In this document: piece after piece, positions 9,835-32,174 of the stretch
Position numbering within the stretch: the first letter of the stretch is position 1
Layout of the letters: every line of letters starts with the position of its first letter
NCBI GenBank assembly: GCA_963829525.1
Contig: CAWHIJ010000003.1
Span: 512,001-576,000, forward strand
Direction of reading: 5' to 3'
DNA from: an uncultured Actinomycetota bacterium
Lineage (GTDB): Bacteria > Actinomycetota > Actinomycetes > JAHEKZ01
DNA: 64,000 nt
The notes under the pieces: model-generated
Database searches by the model: none
What the model was told of the DNA's origin: nothing
Seen by the model: only the letters and a program-made list of their open reading frames with translations
Program-made: the position numbers and the translations under genes

Positions 9835-10890
9835 ATGTCGTACGCAACTGCCCGTCCGCTCCTGGTCACCGCTGACGGTGGCCTTCAGGACGCCGTCCTC
9901 GCTGTGGCCTCTGAGGCGCAGGTCGAGGTGGCTGTGGCCGCCGAGGTCGGTGCCGCAGCAGCTCTTTGGGCGACAGCCCCGCTCGTGCTCCTTGACGTTG
10001 GCTTGGTCGAGTCAGCCCTTCGCACCCTGCCGGTGCCGCGTCCGGGTCTTGTCGTCGTGTCACGAAACATCGAGGACCCGGCTGTGTGGCGGCGACTCGT
10101 GGCGGTGGGGGCCGAGCAAGTGGTCGAGCTGCCGCAAGGCGCCCCTTGGCTCTTTGAGCGCTTCGGCCGCAGCCTGGAGTCTGACCCCACAGCGGACCTC
10201 GTCGTGGTCGCCGGAGCCGTTGGAGGAGCTGGCGCAAGCACGCTCTCAGCGGCCCTGGCCCAGCACGCGCTGGCGTCGCAGTCACGCGCGGTGCTGGTCG
10301 ATCTGGACCCTCTCGGGGGCGGACTCGACCTGATGCTCGGGGCCGAGGGTGCCGCAGGGGCACGTTGGGACGAGCTAGCCGGCGTCACCGGCAGGGTCGA
10401 CGACCGAATCCTGGTCGATGCCCTCCCCACCTGTGGCGGCCTGCCACTGCTCAGCTGGCCCACCGACAGCGACCTCGAGCCCGGGCCATCGGCGGTGGGC
10501 CAGGTGCTGGACGCCCTGTGTCGCCGGCCAGGCGTCGTGGTGGTCGATGCTGGCCGGGCCGATGACCAGCGAGCGGCTGTTGCGCTGGCCAAGTGCCGGC
10601 AGCTCGTGCTCGTCGTGCCGCTTCGGGTGCGGGCCGTCGCTGCGGCTCGGCGGATGCTCCACCGGTTGCCTGCTCACATATCACCCGTGGTCGTTGCTCG
10701 TGAGCCGGGCCCAGGCGGTCTGTCGCCTGACGACTTGGCGATGGCGCTCGGGGTGACAGTGACGGTGACGCTGTTCGACGACCGTAGACGCGCTGCCAAC
10801 GAAGAGCTGGGTGGCCCACCGCCATCGTCGTCAGCATGGCGGCGCGTGTGTGGCGCACTTCTCGAGGCTCGGGCTGAGGCAGCGGCCTGA
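9835..10890 (+). CDS. ssd: Septum site-determining protein Ssd (CpaE/MinD-like)
   Basis: GAVGGAGASTL, LVDLDPLGGGLD; GAGGAGG RBS; first gene of the Tad cluster. Confidence 0.88.
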   Translation: MSYATARPLLVTADGGLQDAVLAVASEAQVEVAVAAEVGAAAALWATAPLVLLDVGLVESALRTLPVPRPGLVVVSRNIEDPAVWRRLVAVGAEQVVELPQGAPWLFERFGRSLESDPTADLVVVAGAVGGAGASTLSAALAQHALASQSRAVLVDLDPLGGGLDLMLGAEGAAGARWDELAGVTGRVDDRILVDALPTCGGLPLLSWPTDSDLEPGPSAVGQVLDALCRRPGVVVVDAGRADDQRAAVALAKCRQLVLVVPLRVRAVAAARRMLHRLPAHISPVVVAREPGPGGLSPDDLAMALGVTVTVTLFDDRRRAANEELGGPPPSSSAWRRVCGALLEARAEAAA

Positions 10891-23678: not shown

Positions 23679-24305
23679 GTGCCTCCATCCAGCCCTGGTC
23701 TCTTCGTCGCCTTCGAGGGCGGGGAAGGCGCTGGCAAGAGCACCCAGGTCGAGCTGCTCGCCAAGGCCCTGAGCGAGCAGGGGCACGAGGTGGTGACCAC
23801 CTTCGAGCCGGGCGACACAGAGGTAGGACGTCAGCTGCGCGAGATCTTGCTCGGTCACCAGACGGGGGCGATCAATCCGCGCACGGAGGCGCTCCTCTAT
23901 GCGGCCGACAGGGCCGAGCACGTGGCGTCGGTGGTGGAGCCGGCCCTCCACCGGGGCGCGGTCTGCATCACCGACCGGTACATCGACTCCTCCATCGCCT
24001 ACCAAGGCGCTGGACGCACCCTCGAGCCGGCCGATATCGAGAACATCTCGAAGTGGGCGACTGGTGAGCTGTGGCCCGACATCACCATCCTTCTCGATAT
24101 CGATCCGGCGATCGGGCTCACTCGCTTCGACACTCCTGCCGATCGTCTCGAAGCCGAACCGCTCGCATTTCATCAGCGAGTACGTGAGCATTTCCTGGCA
24201 CTGAGTGCAAGAAGGCCGGAGCGGTACCTCGTCGTGGATGCGGTGGCGTCGGCCGATGCTGTCTTCAGCGCCGCGTACGCAGCAGTGCAGAAGCGTCTGC
24301 CATGA
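23679..24305 (+). CDS. tmk: Thymidylate kinase
   Basis: FEGGEGAGKST, DRYIDSSIAYQG. Confidence 0.96.
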   Translation: MPPSSPGLFVAFEGGEGAGKSTQVELLAKALSEQGHEVVTTFEPGDTEVGRQLREILLGHQTGAINPRTEALLYAADRAEHVASVVEPALHRGAVCITDRYIDSSIAYQGAGRTLEPADIENISKWATGELWPDITILLDIDPAIGLTRFDTPADRLEAEPLAFHQRVREHFLALSARRPERYLVVDAVASADAVFSAAYAAVQKRLP

Positions 24306-25453
24306 CCGTCTTCGACGCTCTGGTGGGCCAGGCACGAGCCGTCGAGACTTTGGCTCGCGCGGTGAAAGATGCTGCCTTGCCGTCGCCTGGGTCGGCAATG
24401 ACCCACGCCTGGCTCTTCACTGGGCCTCCTGGGTCGGGCCGGTCCGTAGCGGCCAACGCCTTCGCTGCGGCACTCGTCTGCCCACAGGCTGGTTGTGGAC
24501 ACTGCCCTGACTGCCACACCGCACTGCTTGGTACGCACTCTGACGTCGAACACGTCTCCACCGAGTCGATGACGATCTCGGTCGAGCGTGCGCGGTCGCT
24601 CGTCCTCGAGGCATCCACCGCGCCTTCGGTCGCCCGCTGGCGGGTCATAGTTCTTGAGGACGCAGACCGGCTCACCGAGGCTGCCAACAACGCTCTGCTG
24701 AAGTCACTGGAGGAGCCGACACCGCACACCGTCTGGCTGCTCTGCGCGCCTTCCATGGAAGATGTCCTCCCGACCATCAGGTCGCGATGCCGCCACGTAG
24801 TGCTGAACACTCCCACAACGGCCGACGTCGCCCGCCATCTCGTCGAGCGTGACGGCGTGGACGAGGCCATGGCCTCCTTTGCTGCACGTGCGTCCATGGG
24901 TCACATCGGTCGCGCGAGAGGGCTGGCCCGCGACGAGCGGGCGAGGATAACCAGGGCGGCGACTCTTTCGTTACCTGTCAATGTGGCCTCGCTGGGCTCA
25001 GCACTGCTTTCGGCGCGCGAGCTGGTGGATGCGGCCGCCGAGCGAGGCGGTGAGCGAACCAAATCGGTCGATGAGAAGGAGCGCGCTGAGCTGGCACGCG
25101 GGATGGGCGTTGAGAACCCCGAGCGCCCCCCCAAATGGGCTCGAAGCGACTTCAAGCGACTCAAGGACGGACAGGACAAGCGGCGTAAGCGTGCGACCAT
25201 TGACGAGCTCGACCGTGATCTGCAGGACCTCCTAGCCTTCTACCGCGATGTACTCGTCGTGCAGGTCGGCGGCCATGTGGCTCTCGTCAACGCCGAAATG
25301 CGGCAAAGCATCGAGAAGGTTGCTGGACGATGCGAGCCAGAGATGACGATGCGAGCGATGGAAGCGATACTTGAAGCTCGCGAAAAGATTGCAGCGTACG
25401 TAACTCCACTGCTTGCAGTGGAGGAGTTGGCTCTGGCGCTGCGCGCCAGCTAA
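24302..25453 (+). CDS. holB: DNA polymerase III subunit delta'
   Basis: HAWLFTGPPGSG, CGHCPDC, NALLKSLEEP, TIRSRC. Confidence 0.95.
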   Translation: MTVFDALVGQARAVETLARAVKDAALPSPGSAMTHAWLFTGPPGSGRSVAANAFAAALVCPQAGCGHCPDCHTALLGTHSDVEHVSTESMTISVERARSLVLEASTAPSVARWRVIVLEDADRLTEAANNALLKSLEEPTPHTVWLLCAPSMEDVLPTIRSRCRHVVLNTPTTADVARHLVERDGVDEAMASFAARASMGHIGRARGLARDERARITRAATLSLPVNVASLGSALLSARELVDAAAERGGERTKSVDEKERAELARGMGVENPERPPKWARSDFKRLKDGQDKRRKRATIDELDRDLQDLLAFYRDVLVVQVGGHVALVNAEMRQSIEKVAGRCEPEMTMRAMEAILEAREKIAAYVTPLLAVEELALALRAS

Positions 25454-25465
25454 TCGGGAGGTCAC

Positions 25466-26152
25466 ATGCAGGTCGAACTGCGCCACCAGCCGAGCTTTTC
25501 GGTCGCTCGTATCCACCTCGCACCCGGCGAACAGGTTCGCGCGGAGTCGGGGGCGATGGCGATGCACTCGTTCGGGGTCACTGTTGACGCCCAGATGCAG
25601 GGTGGGTTGAAGGGTGCGTTCAAGAGAGGTGTCATGGGTGGTGAGTCGTTATTCGTCACTACCTTCACCGGGCATCCCCAGTCTCCGACGTGGGTCGACG
25701 TTGCAGCTAACCTCCCCGGCGACATCTGGGTGGCGGAGGTTGTCCCCGGGCGGGCACTCGTGGTGACGCGAGGCTCTTGGCTGGCCAACGCGGCGGGCAT
25801 CGACCTTGATACGAAATGGGGCGGAGCGAAGATGTTCGGCGGTGGTGAGGGAGCCTTTGTGCTGCACGCCACGGGCGAGGGCCCCATCGTTTTGGCCGCG
25901 TACGGTGCGATGGATGTTCACGATCTGCAGCAGGGGCAGGGTTTCACCGTTGACTCCGGTCACCTCGTGGCTTACGACGACACGATCTCGGTCCAGACCC
26001 GCAAGGCGACGTCGGGGATCATGGCGACGATGAAGTCCGGTGAGGGCCTCGTGATGGACTTCCAAGGCCCCGGTCGTGTCGTGACCCAGAGCCGCAACCC
26101 CAACGGCCTGATCAACTGGCTGCAGTCGGTCCTTCCAGGCAGTCGCGGTTGA
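25466..26152 (+). CDS. TIGR00266/AIM24 family protein
   Basis: AESGAM, GGESLF, FGGGEG, VDSGH, SGEGLV. Confidence 0.88.
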   Translation: MQVELRHQPSFSVARIHLAPGEQVRAESGAMAMHSFGVTVDAQMQGGLKGAFKRGVMGGESLFVTTFTGHPQSPTWVDVAANLPGDIWVAEVVPGRALVVTRGSWLANAAGIDLDTKWGGAKMFGGGEGAFVLHATGEGPIVLAAYGAMDVHDLQQGQGFTVDSGHLVAYDDTISVQTRKATSGIMATMKSGEGLVMDFQGPGRVVTQSRNPNGLINWLQSVLPGSRG

Positions 26153-27664
26153 TCCGGCGGCTCGTGCTGGGGGCGGCGGCCGGCCTGCTCTTGGCTGGGT
26201 GCACCTCCGGCGAGCCAGAGGTGACCGCATCTCCCGTACCGAGTCCGAGCGCTACGACTGAAGCGCCAAGTGCCCTCCGGCCCTTCTATGAACAACGGGC
26301 TGAGTGGGCAGAGTGTGGGCAGTTCGACTGCGCCACCCTCCAAGCGCCACTCGACTATCGCCAGCCTGGCGCTGGCTCGATTGATCTCGCGATGCTCAGG
26401 CGACCAGCTGACAACCAGGACGAGAAACTCGGCTCACTCTTCGTCAACCCGGGTGGCCCCGGCGTCTCGGGGATCGGCTACGCCAAGCTTGCTGAGGTGC
26501 TTTTCACTGAGCCGGTTCTCGAGCACTACGACATCGTGGGGTGGGACCCAAGAGGCGTGGGCGAGAGCACAGCCATCTCGTGCATGACCGATGAAGAGAC
26601 CGACATCTACTACGAGACGGACGGCACACCTGACACTGCTGCTGAGGTGCGCGACCTCGTTCGGCTGAACGAGCGGTTCACCAAAGGGTGCGTAGCCGAT
26701 GACGCCGCCCTGATTCCGCAGCTGGGCACCTTCAGTTCCGCGCGAGACATCGACATTCTGCGTGCGGCCGTGGACGAACCGCGCCTCAACTACTTCGGTG
26801 CCAGCTACGGCACAGAGCTGGGAGCGATCTACGCCGAGCTCTTTCCACAGCGGGTTGGTCGCATGGTTCTGGACGCCGCACTCGACCCGGCCGTCACCGC
26901 TCAAGATCTCTCACGTGGACAGCTCCGAGGATTCCAGGGTGCGACTCAGGCGTTCATCGAGGACTGCATCGCGCGCGAGGGCTGCGCTGTCGGGCCCACA
27001 TCGGCAGAGGCTGAAGCGCAGTTGGCCGACCTGCTCCTTGAGCTAGACACCGCTCCGCTCCCCACTGACTCCGGGCGTCCCCTGACAGAGTCGCTTGCCA
27101 CCGTCGGCATGATCTCGGCCATGTACAGCGAGTCGTCAGGGTGGCCATCGTTGCGGCTGGGACTGTCTCAGGCATTCAGTGGAGACGGCACGGTCCTTCT
27201 TGGCTTTGGCCGACGCCTACACGGAACGAAACGCTGACGGCACCTACGCATCAAACGTCAACTCTGCGTTTCCGGCAATCAGCTGCACCGATCGCCCGGG
27301 TACCTCGTCAGTGGCGGAGGCCAAGCGCCTCTCCCGAAAGTACGAGCAGATCTCACCGATCTTCGGCCGCACGTTCGCCTGGGGCGCGGTTTCTTGTCGA
27401 GACTGGCCGGTAAAGAAAGGTGCCTTCCCCACTTCGGCTGTTGCCAAAGGCGCCGATCCCATCGTTGTGATCGGTACGACTCGCGACCCTGCGACGCCCT
27501 ACGCCTGGTCAGTCAGTCTGGCCAAGTCTTTGGAGAACGGCGTCCTGATTTCTCGGGACGGCGACGGGCACACCGGCTACAACGCCGGTAACACGTGCGT
27601 CGATGACGCCGTCGATGCCTACCTTGTGGGCGGCGTCGTTCCGAACGACCCGACCGGTTGCTGA
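26149..27664 (+). pseudogene. TAP-like (Hip1/CaeA-type) alpha/beta hydrolase lipoprotein with a +1 frameshift near 27200 (possible sequencing error)
   Basis: LLAGC lipobox, NPGGPG and GASYG in frame 1; DPATP and GDGHTGY in the second ORF; join reads GDGTVLL|ALADAY. Confidence 0.85.
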
Positions 27665-27777: not shown

Positions 27778-27854
27778 GCCGCCTTAGCTCAGTCGGCTAG
27801 AGCGACGCACTCGTAATGCGTAGGTCATCGGTTCGACTCCGATAGGCGGCTCCA
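27778..27854 (+). tRNA. tRNA-Thr(CGT)
   Basis: Acceptor stem GCCGCCT/AGGCGGC; anticodon arm ACGCA-CTCGTAA-TGCGT; GGTTCGACTCC T-arm; encoded CCA; TAGACT -10 at 27744. Confidence 0.97.
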
Positions 27855-27921
27855 CAGTCTGATCCCCGGAATCCCGTATTGGCGATTGGCCAAGGTGGAG
27901 ACCAGCTACACGGGCAACGAA

Positions 27922-27950
27922 TTGCCGGAAGTTTGTTTCTTACGTACTCT
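27922..27950 (+). promoter_or_regulatory. Sigma70-type promoter TTGCCG-N17-TACTCT
   Basis: Consensus spacing; predicted start (~27957) coincides with the 5' end of the riboswitch. Confidence 0.7.
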
Positions 27951-27953
27951 GTG

Positions 27954-28048
27954 GGTAAGGGGAGTACCTCGCCAAGCGCGCTTCGTCAGTCCGGTGGTCC
28001 ATTGGTCACCCGGAGCGCCGCCCGGACGCCCGGGTGAGGGAGACCGTC
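27954..28048 (+). promoter_or_regulatory. yybP-ykoY (Mn2+) riboswitch
   Basis: AAGGGGAGTA...CCTCGCC/GGTGAGG stem...TCGTCAGT...GGGAGACC hallmark segments in correct order. Confidence 0.8.
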
Positions 28049-28108
28049 GTATCTGCGGCTCATGCCGCGACCGGTCCCGAAGGGCCCGCCCGTGAATGTC
28101 GTGAACCG

Positions 28109-28930
28109 ATGACCGAGGTCTCCCGAGGTGGCCGACTCGCCCAACTTGTCGACTCCGATCGCTTCAACGGAGCCATTGCCGCGGTGATCGTGGCCAACGC
28201 TGTGGTACTGGGGCTGGAGACCTACCCGGCTGTTACCCGGGACCACGGATCGATGTTGATGTTTCTCAACGGTCTCTTCTACAGTGTCTTCGCTCTTGAG
28301 CTAGTCCTCAGAATCGCTTCATACGGTCGAAGGCCACAGGACTTCTTCCGCAGTGGCTGGAACATCTTCGACCTCGTCATCATCGGGTCGGTCGCGATCC
28401 CGGCCGTGCGCGAGCAGACGCAGCTGCTTCGGCTGCTTCGGCTGGCCCGCATCGTGCGCCTTGTGCGATTCCTGCCGGATGCTCGAATCCTGATCCTGAC
28501 GGTTCTTAAGTCGATTCCGTCGGTCTTCAGCATGGTGGTCCTGACCCTTGTGCTGATGTTTGTGTACGGCATGGTCGGCTGGTCCCTCTACGGTGAGGCG
28601 CTCCCAGAGACCTGGGGGACGATCGGTCAATCGATGCTCACCCTGTTCATCTTGCTGACGTTGGAGAACTTCCCGACCTACCTCGCCGAGGCAGAGCAGG
28701 TGAGCCCCTTTGCGCCGGCCTTCTTCGTCTCGTACGTGTTGCTTGCCGCCTTCATCGTCTTCAATCTGCTGATCGGGATCGTCATCGCGTCCATGGAGAA
28801 GGCTCGCCGACACGAGGCGGGTGATGGCGTCCCCGTGTCCGATGATCTTCTTCTGGAACGGATTGCTGACCTCCGGATGTCACTGAGCAAACTCGAATCC
28901 GACCTCACGCAGCGAGGGACCGGGCATTGA
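28109..28930 (+). CDS. Bacterial voltage-gated Na+/cation channel homologue (Ion_trans, NaChBac-like)
   Basis: FFRSGWNIFD; S4 LLRLLRLARIVRLVR; filter TLENF; S6 FNLLIGIV; C-terminal coiled coil. Confidence 0.9.
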   Translation: MTEVSRGGRLAQLVDSDRFNGAIAAVIVANAVVLGLETYPAVTRDHGSMLMFLNGLFYSVFALELVLRIASYGRRPQDFFRSGWNIFDLVIIGSVAIPAVREQTQLLRLLRLARIVRLVRFLPDARILILTVLKSIPSVFSMVVLTLVLMFVYGMVGWSLYGEALPETWGTIGQSMLTLFILLTLENFPTYLAEAEQVSPFAPAFFVSYVLLAAFIVFNLLIGIVIASMEKARRHEAGDGVPVSDDLLLERIADLRMSLSKLESDLTQRGTGH

Positions 28931-28972: not shown

Positions 28973-30452
28973 CTAGGGTGTCACCTTGGTGTAGACGACA
29001 TCGGAGGTGTTTCTCGCAGAGCCGGTCCGCGTAAAGAGCAGGCCGAAGTCGTTGCCGGCCGTTGCGATCCCCTGGTAGTCACCGAGGAAGTACCCGCGGG
29101 CAATGGGTGCGTTCTCCATGTCGAACGGCCCCTCGACGTGTGTCTCGGTCCAGTTGCCGGGCGAGGTGCAGTCCGAACTGGAGGCGCATGACGTGAACCA
29201 GTAGTCGGTAGGCAGGCCCGCTGCGGCGTCGTTGTTTCGGAAGTCGTAGTAGGCGACGCCGACGGTGCCATCTTGGGCGACAGCGACGCTCGGTGTGAAG
29301 GCGCTGACGTTGGTTGGGGCATTGTCGATCTTTGTCGGGCGCGCTCCAGGTACGGCCGCCGTCCGTCGACTGCGAGAACGCAACGTGGGAGTAGGCACCG
29401 TTCGCAAATCGGCCGTCCTGCCATACCGCATACAGGTTTCCAGTCGTACGGTCCACAGCAACCTCCGGAATGATGTCTCCGGTGCGTACGGCAGCGCCAG
29501 TGTCGGGGTCTGTCACCTGGACGAACTGCAGGTTGGAGACGATGGTGGCCTTGCTGTCCCAGGTAACGCCCTTGTCGGCGGATCGGATCACCGCGACGTT
29601 GTAGCCGCGGATCTTTCCCTTGTTGTCATTGCGGATCAGGTTGAACAGGTCGACCAGTGTGCCGTTGGGAAGCACCACGATCTGGTTCCCGATCGTCTGG
29701 TTGTGCGTTCCGAGGTTGTAGATGATTCGCGCAGGCTCCCAGGTGTCGCCACCATCGACGGTCCGGGCCAGCAGCGTCGGTCCCCGGTAGCCAGAGGTGT
29801 TCTCCGAGCTCTTCAGCGAGCCCTTGCCTGGGGGTGAGTCGAGCCGGTCCCAGATTGCGTAGACGTAGTTGGAGTCGTAAGGGTCGGCGGTGATGCTGTT
29901 CTTGTCGTTGAAGAGGGACGTGTCGGTGTCGTAAGCGATGAAGGTCGGGCTTCCCCAGATGAGGCCGCCATTGGTTGATCGGCTCACTGACATGCCGGTC
30001 GGAGTGTTCCCGCCGGTTGGCACCTTGGTCTCCACCAATGACATCTGGTAGAGCGTTCCGTTGGGGGAGAAGGTCAACCACGGGTCGCTGGCGCGGGAGA
30101 AGTCAGTGCCGCCGGAACAATAGGTGAGGCCGGGAATCGCTCCGGTCGTGAAGGTTGCCCCACCGTTGAAGCTGGCGCCGAATCCCGAGCCAACAGCCGC
30201 TCCACTCGACCAGCGGTCCTGCTGCCAGCTTCCGACGACGTTGTTTGAGTTGGTGGGGTTGATCGCCAGGGAGGGCTCAAGCTCGGTGTTCAGGAACTTG
30301 GACCCAGGGCCGGTGTCGGTGATGGTGCATCCGGCAAGCGGACTGACGCTTGGGCTGGCCGGAACTACCGTCCCGGGTGTGTAGGCAGCTGCTGCGGCGA
30401 CGCCCATCCCCATGAGCGGCAAGGTGGCGACAACGACGAGAACGCGGCGCAT
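28973..30452 (-). pseudogene. Secreted Asp-box (BNR) sialidase-like beta-propeller protein with a +1 frameshift at ~29338 (possible sequencing error)
   Basis: Signal peptide; STNGGLIW, TVDGGDTW, SADKGVTW, STDGGRTW; join WSAP|TKIDNAP; C-terminal FLGDYQG. Confidence 0.82.
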
Positions 30453-30716
30453 GAGTACTCCCTGAACGAGATGCCTGCGGTGCACGAGGGCTCACCAGCG
30501 AACCACTCGTGGCGTTTGTCGGACTCGGTTTAGCACACTTGAAATGGAGCCACGAGGGTCTTGCATCAACTGTGACTCCGGGTGATCGCTTGATAACCGC
30601 AGCGAGCGTCCGGGTTGTGCCGATATTCGGCGCCGCGCCGCCAGCGGGCTCAAGAAGTTCCTGTACAACCGTTCAGGCCTCGGGCTAGGTTCCAGGCGTC
30701 GACGAAGGGACCCCCC

Positions 30717-32174
30717 ATGAGCTACTCGCGGCGTTACCCACTCATTGCACTCGCGGTCGCCCTGCTTGTCGTGGCGACCTGGATCGTTCTCTCCCGGCCC
30801 TTCTCCGACGAAGGGTCCTCAGCTGCAGTTTCTGCGCTCACGTCGGGAGAGGACCCGGGCGAGCAGGGCGTTGGTGATGCCGAGTTCGAGCGAGGGATGG
30901 CCCGTCAAGAAGCCTCCCAGTCGGTGCCCCTGCGAACGGCGCCCGTCCAGGCCAGTCCTGCGAGCGGATGGGCCGGTTCAACGCGATTTAGCGCGACCGG
31001 CAACGATTGGGAGCCGGCGGTAGCAGCTGCGCCGAACTCGGGCTCGGTGTACGTACTCACCACCCGTTACGGCGGCGCCAAGGCGTGCCGGAGCGCTTGC
31101 CCAGACCCCGCTCTGATCCTTCGGGTCAGCAGCGACTACGGCAAGACATTTGGTTCGGAGTCTTACCTGTGCGCATGCAAGAACGTGAAGGCGCAGAATG
31201 ACCCTGAGATGGTGGTGCTTCCAAATGGGACGGTCTATGCCGCGTGGATGAATGACTGGCGCATCGTCTTCGCGAAGTCAACGGACAAGGGCAAGACCTG
31301 GTCTGCCCCGGTTTCTGTCGTAGGCAATCTCTCCTGGTCGGACAAGCCGATCATGGTCGCGTCGCCGACGGGACAGGACGTGTACATCGCCTTCAACAAG
31401 AGCGATGCCTATGTGGCGGTCTCCCACGACTTCGGGGTGACGTGGACGCAGCAGCTCTCCCAAGCCAATGGCCAGTACCACTTTGCCAACGGCGGTGTGG
31501 TGCTCCCGAACGGTGGTATTGCGTTCGGCGAGGTGGCCTACGCGCAGGATTCGACGGGCCCGTCGACAGTGCAGGTGCACCGGTCAACCGATGGCGGAGT
31601 CACTTGGTCGGTGACCAACGTCGACACGATGCAAGAGATGCCTCATTGCACCTCGGCCGGCTGCGGGATCGACTACTACGGGCCACAAGCTGCGCTCGCT
31701 GCAGACAGCAGTGGTCAGTTGATGATCGCCTACAACGGGAACAGCAGCGCTCTAGCCCCGCAAAGGATGTACACCAGGACATCGACCAATGGTGGGAGTA
31801 CCTGGTCGGCGCGTACCGACGTCACCGGCGTGGCTGGAGCAGGCTCGGGAACCGCTGGGGCAGCGTTCCCTGCAGCTGCGGCGGGAGGAGCCGGAGACTT
31901 CCGGCTGTACTTCATGGATGACCGCAACGGAGCTGCGTCCTGGAACGTGTGGTTCGTCAAAAGCACGAATGGTGGTGGCACTTGGTCGACGCCAGCGCTT
32001 CTGAGTGACGCGACAGCAGGAGCCAGCTACATCAGTGCGAACGGGTTCGCGCAACCGTACGGTGACTACGGTCAACTAGCCGTCCGGGCCGATGGTGGAA
32101 CGATCGCCGTTTGGGGTGAAGGAGTCTCCTACACGGGACCGGGAAATACCTGGATCAACCGCACAACTCCCTAG
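30717..32174 (+). CDS. Secreted or membrane-anchored Asp-box (BNR) sialidase-like protein
   Basis: N-terminal TM helix; six SxDxGxTW-type repeats; YGDYG near the C-terminus. Confidence 0.85.
   Translation: MSYSRRYPLIALAVALLVVATWIVLSRPFSDEGSSAAVSALTSGEDPGEQGVGDAEFERGMARQEASQSVPLRTAPVQASPASGWAGSTRFSATGNDWEPAVAAAPNSGSVYVLTTRYGGAKACRSACPDPALILRVSSDYGKTFGSESYLCACKNVKAQNDPEMVVLPNGTVYAAWMNDWRIVFAKSTDKGKTWSAPVSVVGNLSWSDKPIMVASPTGQDVYIAFNKSDAYVAVSHDFGVTWTQQLSQANGQYHFANGGVVLPNGGIAFGEVAYAQDSTGPSTVQVHRSTDGGVTWSVTNVDTMQEMPHCTSAGCGIDYYGPQAALAADSSGQLMIAYNGNSSALAPQRMYTRTSTNGGSTWSARTDVTGVAGAGSGTAGAAFPAAAAGGAGDFRLYFMDDRNGAASWNVWFVKSTNGGGTWSTPALLSDATAGASYISANGFAQPYGDYGQLAVRADGGTIAVWGEGVSYTGPGNTWINRTTP

Follow-up and report, generated by a model that had tools for sequence, protein, structure and literature searches.

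The described manganese-sensing riboswitches of the yybP-ykoY family are collected in Rfam under model RF00080, but two accepted members, those of Escherichia coli alx and Streptococcus pneumoniae mgtA, lack the P2 hairpin and form a three-way junction (PMC12153347 and PMC6649816). The N7 of an invariant adenosine in L3 binds Mn2+ (PMC11672702 and PMC12153347), and in alx the ribosome-binding site is described as pairing with the disrupted P1.1/L1 region when Mn is absent (PMC12153347). The same 2025 paper states that alx-like riboswitches are exclusive to Enterobacteriales. In the bacterial voltage-gated Na+ channels (BacNav), the selectivity filters of the known groups are TLESW, TLEGW, or TLDSW, and a Trp is present in all characterised groups (PMC7041947). 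Here we describe a locus of an uncultured Actinomycetota bacterium (contig CAWHIJ010000003.1, positions 512,001–576,000 of the forward strand; this whole stretch of 64,000 nucleotides is referred to as the window) in which a leader RNA of the alx type precedes the gene of a BacNav-like channel. The leader is probably an ON switch of the Mn2+-riboswitch family that passed to the channel gene from a deleted terC gene.

The features of the leader, which are also the elements needed for its comparison with alx, are located in the window as follows.

27922–27927 and 27945–27950, + strand: candidate promoter, -35 TTGCCG and -10 TACTCT with a 17-nt spacer (sequence; recurrence in orthologous leaders)
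27957–28047, + strand: aptamer, putative alx-like three-way-junction yybP-ykoY riboswitch (alignments, covariation counts, and 111.7 bits with R1, a covariance model built from seven leaders of the window's genus only)
27957–27960 with 28044–28047, + strand: P1.1
27957–27966, + strand: AAGGGGAGTA (sequence)
27961–27966, + strand: 5' strand of L1 (GGAGUA)
27967–27971 with 28035–28039, + strand: P1.2; CCTCG(CC) at 27967–27973 pairs with (GG)TGAGG at 28033–28039
27977–27982 with 28014–28019, + strand: P3.1
27983–27990, + strand: L3, UCGUCAGU, with TCGTCA at 27983–27988 and the candidate metal-binding A at 27988
27991–27998 with 28005–28013, + strand: P3.2
28021–28025 with 28030–28034, + strand: P4
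28038–28045, + strand: GGGAGACC (sequence)
28040–28043, + strand: 3' strand of L1 (GAGA)

The structure model comprises 28 pairs in five to six helices (P1.1, P1.2, P3.1, P3.2, and P4). P1.2 and P3.1 are separated by just CCAA (27972–27975), leaving no P2 hairpin and no four-way junction. In the seven sequences from the genus, 92.3% of the cells are paired, double changes are found in 8 of the 28 pairs, and G14-C103 and G15-C102 are paired in every sequence. Among 39 sequences, whose alignment was fitted to the structure model and therefore favours that structure, 90.2% of the cells are paired as compared with 69.1% in shuffles and 31–54% with slid partners; compensatory double changes occur in 23 of the 28 pairs, including all five of P1.2, and none of 500 shuffles matches any of these measures. 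The most conserved columns are the unpaired GGGGAGUA, GUCA, and AGACC, which are near-invariant (at least 37 of the 39 sequences at the starred columns). In the window, GGGGAGUA occupies 27959–27966 between P1.1 and P1.2, the conserved UCGUCAGU carries GUCA with its A at 27988, and (G)AGACC at 28040–28045 closes onto the 5' GG. Judged from this comparison, the leader from 27957 to 28047 is a real structured RNA. The idea that its motifs are accidents of a GC-rich spacer that contains no riboswitch draws on the missing Rfam match and on the single-sequence minimum free energy (MFE) z-score of -0.49, which is no better than that of shuffles and is uninformative. It is refuted, to the point of having next to no probability left, by the conservation and covariation over 39 loci, by the constant position of the leader before terC, and by the matches to alx and mntP described below.

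The candidate promoter precedes a transcription start that probably lies near 27957. By eye, 13 of 19 orthologous leaders have hexamers of the same kind (TTGC.. and TAnnnT) in an unchanged register, and the spacers between them vary freely. A generic sigma-70 promoter and terminator scan returned 0 promoters and nothing on the + strand.

The assignment of the leader to the yybP-ykoY family had been made in a preliminary description of this DNA, which also took the lack of a covariance-model hit as grounds for rejecting it. Taken alone, the Rfam searches give exactly that outcome and weigh against the family assignment. Scanned at gathering scores (45 bits for RF00080), the window yielded only the tRNA; the 321-nt leader had no RF00080 match even at E ≤ 10, the loci of seven relatives had none, and the whole genome had nothing except an 8.5-bit match elsewhere. 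The weak matches to che1 (E 1.4) and Actinomyces-1 (E 5.2) were put down to chance. The leader is missed because the RF00080 model has P2, a longer L3, and a structure line that ends after P4. The E. coli mntP leader (L137 10468–10558) reaches 44.9 bits with RF00080, just below the gathering score, so that a scan at that threshold reports nothing at this studied riboswitch.

Covariance models built from the actinobacterial leaders bear the family assignment out. Model R2, made from 39 such leaders with none from E. coli, was run unfiltered on regions of E. coli K-12. Within 16 kb around alx, its sole match with E < 0.1 (L138 8367–8511) is the alx leader, 70 nt before the alx coding sequence, at 53.5 bits (E 3.3e-14), over the full length and with every helix; R1 alone gives 21 bits (E 2e-4) at that leader. 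Within 20 kb around mntP, the best R2 match is the mntP leader (10457–10583; 19.4 bits, E 4e-4). The link to RF00080 is also seen within the Actinomycetes: among 4,227 Rfam families, the one that best matches the sister-genus leader L024 is RF00080 (14.7 bits, E 0.021), and R1 matches RF00080 sites of sub-threshold score in unrelated genomes (L028, 43.0 bits; L029, 34.6; L030, 30.6; L027, 27.2); L033, with 17.7 bits for RF00080, was not confirmed by R1. By these homologies, the leader belongs to the yybP-ykoY (Mn2+) riboswitches, as an alx-like member that has a three-way junction and lacks P2.

Among 151 sampled Actinomycetes genomes, R1 finds matches in 24, and RF00080 has matches at E ≤ 0.01 in seven and reaches its cut-off in none. 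The genes behind the R1 matches encode TerC in nine and GDT1 in one of the ten tested; a second set of genes behind leaders comprises three Na_Ca_ex, one GDT1, and three TerC. The alx-type leaders, commonly placed before terC, are represented among loci L114–L132 and L023/L024, all from Actinomycetes, and genes of the Na_Ca_ex (CaCA) family lie behind yybP-ykoY-like leaders in L028, L029, and L027 (Pfam 1.7e-22 to 2.4e-21), which hints at a wider cation-transport regulon for such leaders in Actinomycetes. Mn riboswitches of the alx type are thus common before terC in this class, and annotation pipelines that work at the Rfam threshold miss the regulon. Several R1 matches were judged to be false or doubtful and were set aside: two of them, L025 (22 bits) and L026 (24.6 bits), apparently lie in coding sequence, and no adjacent exporter open reading frame (ORF) is evident at L135 (26.6 bits), L134, L136, and L123.

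The same fold might report another signal, either a different divalent cation such as Ca2+ or chiefly alkaline pH, instead of Mn2+. Such a signal would be in keeping with a cation channel and with the Na_Ca_ex genes behind related leaders, which were found behind three of the four tested sub-threshold RF00080 sites. The window's L3, UCGUCAGU, has no 3' strand and is shorter than the RF00080 L3 consensus; the mgtA member of S. pneumoniae has a higher affinity for Ca2+ than for Mn2+ (PMC6649816), and alx responds to alkaline pH (PMC12153347). However, the nucleotides that are conserved here are those of L1 and L3, the GUCA adenosine included, and the pH response of alx is reported to be abolished when the adenosine that coordinates Mn is mutated (PMC12153347). 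Mn2+ exporters occur in both the TerC and the GDT1 family; the annotation of E. coli Alx is that of an Mn2+ exporter, and GDT1 is, according to Pfam, a divalent cation/proton antiporter. We consider a signal other than Mn2+ quite improbable.

The history of the locus is recorded in a short reading frame between the leader and the channel gene.

28092–28112, + strand: relic of terC, a six-codon ORF V-N-V-V-N-R-stop that keeps the terC start, first codons, and terC stop
28109–28930, + strand: voltage-gated-type cation channel, BacNav-like, 273 amino acids (aa) (Pfam Ion_trans 8.5e-39; PDB matches; orthologue alignments)

The TGA of the relic (28110–28112) overlaps the ATG of the channel gene (28109–28111). 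Orthologues of the channel are present in 10 of 61 related genomes, counting G000 itself. In G007 and G008 the same leader is directly upstream of the channel gene; in G001, G010, and G004 a TerC gene is directly upstream of it and the leader motif is upstream of TerC. The intact terC encodes 336–339 aa (339 aa in L004/L036; Pfam TerC 1.4e-54), starts 7–8 nt past the same Shine-Dalgarno (SD) element, and shares bases of its TGA stop with the start codon of the channel gene, in the form ATGA or GTGA. The order leader, terC, channel with overlapping stop and start is found at L004, L006, and L011 and, outside the genus, at five further loci with the GTGA overlap (L042, L043, L052, L059, and L062); L052 is from the cultured Longivirga aurantiaca, and Pfam confirms TerC in L042 and L052. 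Alignment by blastn pairs window 27959–28084 with L036 1852–1976 and window 28109–28820 with L036 3001–3712, leaving 24 nt in the window and 1,024 nt in L036 between the aligned blocks. What is missing from the window therefore coincides almost exactly with the coding region of terC; six codons remain where the terC-bearing relatives encode a TerC domain.

The junction is spanned by gap-free DNA contigs across the leader, relic, and channel start (X1, 27949–28839; X2, 27848–28270; X5, 28008–28158) from three runs in two studies, and the junction and frame are therefore not a slip of assembly; X1 and X2 may come from the source sample, and stretches that lack cover in X5 or X20 carry no meaning. 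Other genomes of the genus have reduced the operon in different ways. (i) In G008 the relic start is fused in frame to the channel. (ii) In G007 a TTG start lies directly behind the SD element. (iii) In G013 terC is a pseudogene with an internal deletion and a frameshift. (iv) In G004 terC is kept and the channel is cut to 96 aa. No channel was found in G006. In the channel tree the window, G007, and G008 form one group (support 84/49); G001 and G010, which have terC, stand next to it (100/97 for the five together), and G013 is grouped with G019, so that terC was lost at least twice. Within the window's own clade the deletion may be a single event, but the support is weak. Two TerC paralogues elsewhere in the genome (C3:1875029–1876657) lack the leader and may explain why the lost copy was dispensable. 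A possible second copy of the leader before these paralogues was rejected: the nearby GGGGAGTAC lies inside an upstream coding region that is UvrB-like by eye. In L041 (2772–3843, one metagenome-assembled genome) leader and terC are divergent from the channel gene with 117 nt between them, which appears to be an inversion that uncoupled the channel from the riboswitch and kept the two adjacent.

From these alignments, the pairing of riboswitch and channel is real but derived, having arisen by deletion of terC from a conserved operon. The control of the channel by the riboswitch, as first proposed, stands to the extent that the channel gene is the only gene behind the leader in this genome; the arrangement is not original to it. 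The contrary possibility raised at the same time, a riboswitch left over from a deleted gene, is literally true of terC, but the aptamer and the channel are still under purifying selection. The ratio of nonsynonymous to synonymous substitution rates (dN/dS) of the channel in the three terC-less genomes is 0.104 between the window and G007, 0.083 between the window and G008, and 0.124 between G007 and G008. The corresponding dS is 0.379 for G007 and G008 and about 1.4–1.5 for the window against either. The aptamers of G007 and G008 are identical at 89 of 92 positions and that of the window matches them at 77–78 of 92 (84–85%), and the changes within the terC-less leaders keep the helices paired. 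Together with the promoter hexamers, which keep their register between freely varying spacers, these comparisons speak for selection that acts on promoter, aptamer, and channel even where terC is gone. Because the channel was already the second coupled gene in several genera and both it and the aptamer have remained under purifying selection after the loss, the pairing is no meaningless remnant.

The following elements lie between the aptamer and the relic start.

28039–28078, + strand: expression platform, in which GG.GACCG (28039–28046) forms an alternative anti-P1.1 helix with CGGUCCC (28072–28078) (RNAfold MFE)
28055–28059 with 28064–28068, + strand: hairpin enclosed by the anti-P1.1 helix
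28069–28078, + strand: GACCGGTCCC (sequence)
28079–28084, + strand: Shine-Dalgarno element GAAGGG, which first belonged to terC; L004, L006, and L011 have it ahead of their terC start

All of the sequence elements listed in the preliminary description (promoter, aptamer motifs, complement, GAAGGG, and channel) are present where it placed them. Its reading of GAAGGG as the ribosome-binding site of the channel needs revision: the element lies 7 nt before the relic GTG at 28092 and 24 nt before the channel ATG, a distance at which it does not directly serve the latter. No separate SD precedes the channel ATG, and initiation there therefore probably goes through the relic ORF and its ATGA overlap.

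The terC-bearing relatives have an equivalent anti-P1.1 helix, GAGACCG with CGGUCUC. In the free MFE structures of the terC-bearing leaders of the genus this helix is formed and the SD region is paired with the rising L1/P1.2 strand, a Mn-free fold that resembles the one described for E. coli alx (PMC12153347). In the sister genus and more distant leaders, the 3' strand of P1.1 extends into the helix that holds the SD element, for example CCUUCCAAGC with GCUUGGAAGG in L023, an arrangement that would make a classic ON switch of translation. When the aptamer is forced in the model, the SD element becomes more likely to be unpaired in nine of ten leaders. From the free to the aptamer-forced state it changes from 0.21 to 0.37 in the window, from 0.25 to 0.53 in L004, and from 0.46 to 0.40 in L005.

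Several observations weigh against a switch that still works on the channel. The gain in SD accessibility is smaller without terC (+0.16, +0.17, and -0.06) than with it (+0.28, +0.28, and +0.22), and the stretch after the SD element that pairs with the rising L1/P1.2 strand in L004 is altered in the terC-less leaders. The P1.1 of the window is weak, with two G-C pairs, an A/G mismatch, and one A-U pair, and the aptamer-forced fold, computed without tertiary or metal contacts, is 10.5 kcal/mol less stable than the free MFE structure. Restart on the channel ATG after a six-codon ORF is inferred solely from the overlap. In the RNA-library data, one run has a small share (0.05) and gives one 132-nt contig (27967–28098) with seven differences; the contig is from a relative and could be DNA, and it provides no expression support for the window genome. 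The anti-P1.1 helix of the window (28039–28046 with 28072–28078) is intact, and the models suggest that its switch may be leakier than those of the terC-bearing relatives, because the complement between SD and L1 is weakened and P1.1 is short.

Some of these features are also what would be expected of a decaying remnant, in which the leader switches nothing, the channel is constitutive or hardly read, and the aptamer is conserved only because little time has passed. The complement that sequesters the SD element in L004 is lost from the terC-less leaders, with the accessibility change reduced and in L005 reversed; P1.1 is weak in the window; and operon decay is under way in the genus (the G013 pseudogene, the 96-aa channel of G004, and the channel not found in G006). 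Little time is contradicted by the aptamer identities, 89 of 92 at a channel dS of 0.38 and 84–85% at a dS of about 1.4–1.5, over which the promoter spacers were free to differ, and by helices that stay paired despite the changes. Moreover, all three types of junction (relic ORF with ATGA, in-frame fusion, and direct TTG) keep the channel behind the SD element of the riboswitch. A decaying remnant is, on balance, unlikely.

Under the preferred reading, an ON switch handed from terC to the channel, the sequence of events would be as follows. Ancestrally, Mn2+ would have stabilised P1.1 and L1 and so switched on translation of terC, with the channel gene translationally coupled behind it where stop and start overlap (GTGA or ATGA). 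The lineage of the window then lost about 1 kb of terC, in a deletion that spared the promoter, aptamer, anti-P1.1 helix, Shine-Dalgarno element, and the start and stop codons of terC. Ribosomes would now load at the riboswitch-controlled SD and GTG (28092), translate six codons, stop at the TGA (28110–28112), and restart at the overlapping channel ATG (28109), and the channel would have become the sole product of an Mn2+-responsive ON switch.

The channel is of the BacNav type in its architecture and departs from it at the filter.

28430–28468, + strand: S4 arginine codons
28658–28672, + strand: codons of the selectivity filter, TLENF

It is a six-transmembrane (6-TM) Ion_trans protein, as first described, in which S4 has an Arg at every third residue (R108, R111, R114, R117, and R120), all five invariant in seven orthologues; the C-terminal tail looks like a coiled coil. 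The best one-domain relatives in the PDB are NavMs (5hvx, 1.8e-40), NaChBac (6vwx, 3.5e-38), and NavAb (3rvy, 2.6e-33), each matched over nearly the full length. The filter at residues 184–188 is T-L-E-N-F and does not conform to the BacNav pattern T-x-E/D-x-W; the string 'TLEN' is absent from the accessible part of PMC7041947. It had been called atypical, which holds for the missing Trp relative to BacNav but not as a peculiarity of this gene: a filter T/S-L-E-N/D-F/L-P that lacks Trp is the rule in 80 of 80 relatives from Actinomycetota genomes. A survey of these loci for the riboswitch, which the preliminary description had suggested, found the leader within the available flank (under 700 nt upstream in six loci) in 11 of 80, ten with the leader upstream on the same strand and L041 with it divergent; 70 of the 80 have no same-strand upstream leader in that flank. 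The filter therefore characterises the clade and occurs independently of the riboswitch. Within the BacNav family, the channels with TLENFP make up a large and uncharacterised branch. In L004 (G001), the channel frame (1501–2988) runs to 496 aa with the usual stop missing, which may reflect a lost stop codon or a sequencing error.

That the channel has been repurposed for Mn2+, divalent-cation, or alkali homeostasis, as the preliminary description supposed, is a conjecture. On thermodynamic grounds the channel would be unable to export Mn2+ against an inside-negative potential, and protection would therefore more likely work by way of the membrane potential or of monovalent cation flux than by Mn2+ efflux. 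One possible route is depolarisation that lowers electrophoretic entry of divalent cations. Na+ re-entry that feeds antiporters has been proposed for the Nav channels of alkaliphiles, and by analogy it is another possible route here. We put forward only tentatively, as something less likely to be right than wrong, that the TLENFP channel has a working part in the response to Mn2+ (or alkaline) stress, that several genera took it into the riboswitch-terC operon with its translational coupling conserved, and that at least two lineages kept it under the riboswitch after the loss of terC, purifying selection acting on aptamer and channel alike. If true, it would be the first case of an ion channel made under the control of a metal-sensing riboswitch and would add a membrane-potential or cation-flux arm to manganese defence; the locus hints that an unstudied channel family takes part in defence against metal stress. 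A case in which the channel is the sole regulated gene offers a clean way to approach what prokaryotic voltage-gated channels do physiologically, a long-standing gap. The locus is also a natural experiment in operon reduction, in which a gene has been removed, its start, stop, and riboswitch have been kept, and control passes to the next gene.

The surroundings of the unit do not align with those of the relatives.

27778–27854, + strand: tRNA-Thr, anticodon CGT (ARAGORN; Rfam tRNA, 69.8 bits), the upstream neighbour and 5' limit, outside the unit
23679–25453, + strand: tmk (thymidylate kinase) and holB (DNA polymerase III delta'), in their usual overlapping arrangement by eye, an ordinary pair
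26149–27664, + strand: alpha/beta hydrolase, with Abhydrolase_1 (26149–27234) and a TAP-like C-terminal domain (27179–27661) in two overlapping frames
28973–30485, - strand: BNR-repeat (sialidase-like) gene convergent on the channel gene
30615–32174, + strand: paralogous BNR-like ORF

The split hydrolase is either a frameshifted gene or the result of an assembly indel near 27180–27237, and an overlapping ORF at 28973–29461 suggests a displaced C terminus of the BNR gene and another frameshift. In blastn synteny comparisons, only the leader-channel cassette aligns between the window and its relatives, and a tRNA beside the cassette is absent in seven relatives, so that the deletion cannot be placed in a shared context.

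Compared with known systems, the window leader is closest to the PRE element of E. coli alx. Both lack P2, and they share the L1 sequence GGGGAGUA, an L3 loop of the UCGUCAUU type, and the 3' GAGACC; alx is itself a TerC-family gene, as was the ancestral gene downstream of the window leader. Control in alx is translational, and the same is probable for the window. The window leader differs in that it is from an actinomycete, has no long P4 with an internal terminator, and has lost its TerC gene, and in that a channel is regulated. The members described by RF00080 (E. coli mntP, L. lactis yoaB, and B. subtilis yybP and ykoY) have the same L1/L3 core and P3-P4 order, and both they and the family of the window leader are tied to Mn exporter families (TerC and GDT1/UPF0016), but RF00080 has a P2 hairpin and a longer L3, and the window scores nothing with it. 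The terC RNA motif of Weinberg et al. (2017) likewise lies upstream of genes of the TerC family, and a link to metals is suspected for it (PMC5737381), but it is a separate motif; cmscan at E ≤ 10 did not report it over the leader, a result that counts only if the motif is in Rfam 15, as we assume. The channel has one 6-TM domain of ~270 aa, a five-Arg S4, and the glutamate of T-L-E in common with NaChBac, NavAb, NavMs, and the CavMr/NavPp 'AnclNav' group, and it differs from their TLESW, TLEGW, or TLDSW filters in TLENFP, where Trp is replaced by Phe or Leu followed by Pro. Among the papers listed by literature searches, none ties a yybP-ykoY riboswitch to a channel of the voltage-gated type, although supplementary files outside the search might list such contexts. 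As far as these searches show, the channel is a type of regulated gene new to the yybP-ykoY family, and the riboswitch itself is an additional member of the alx-like subclass.

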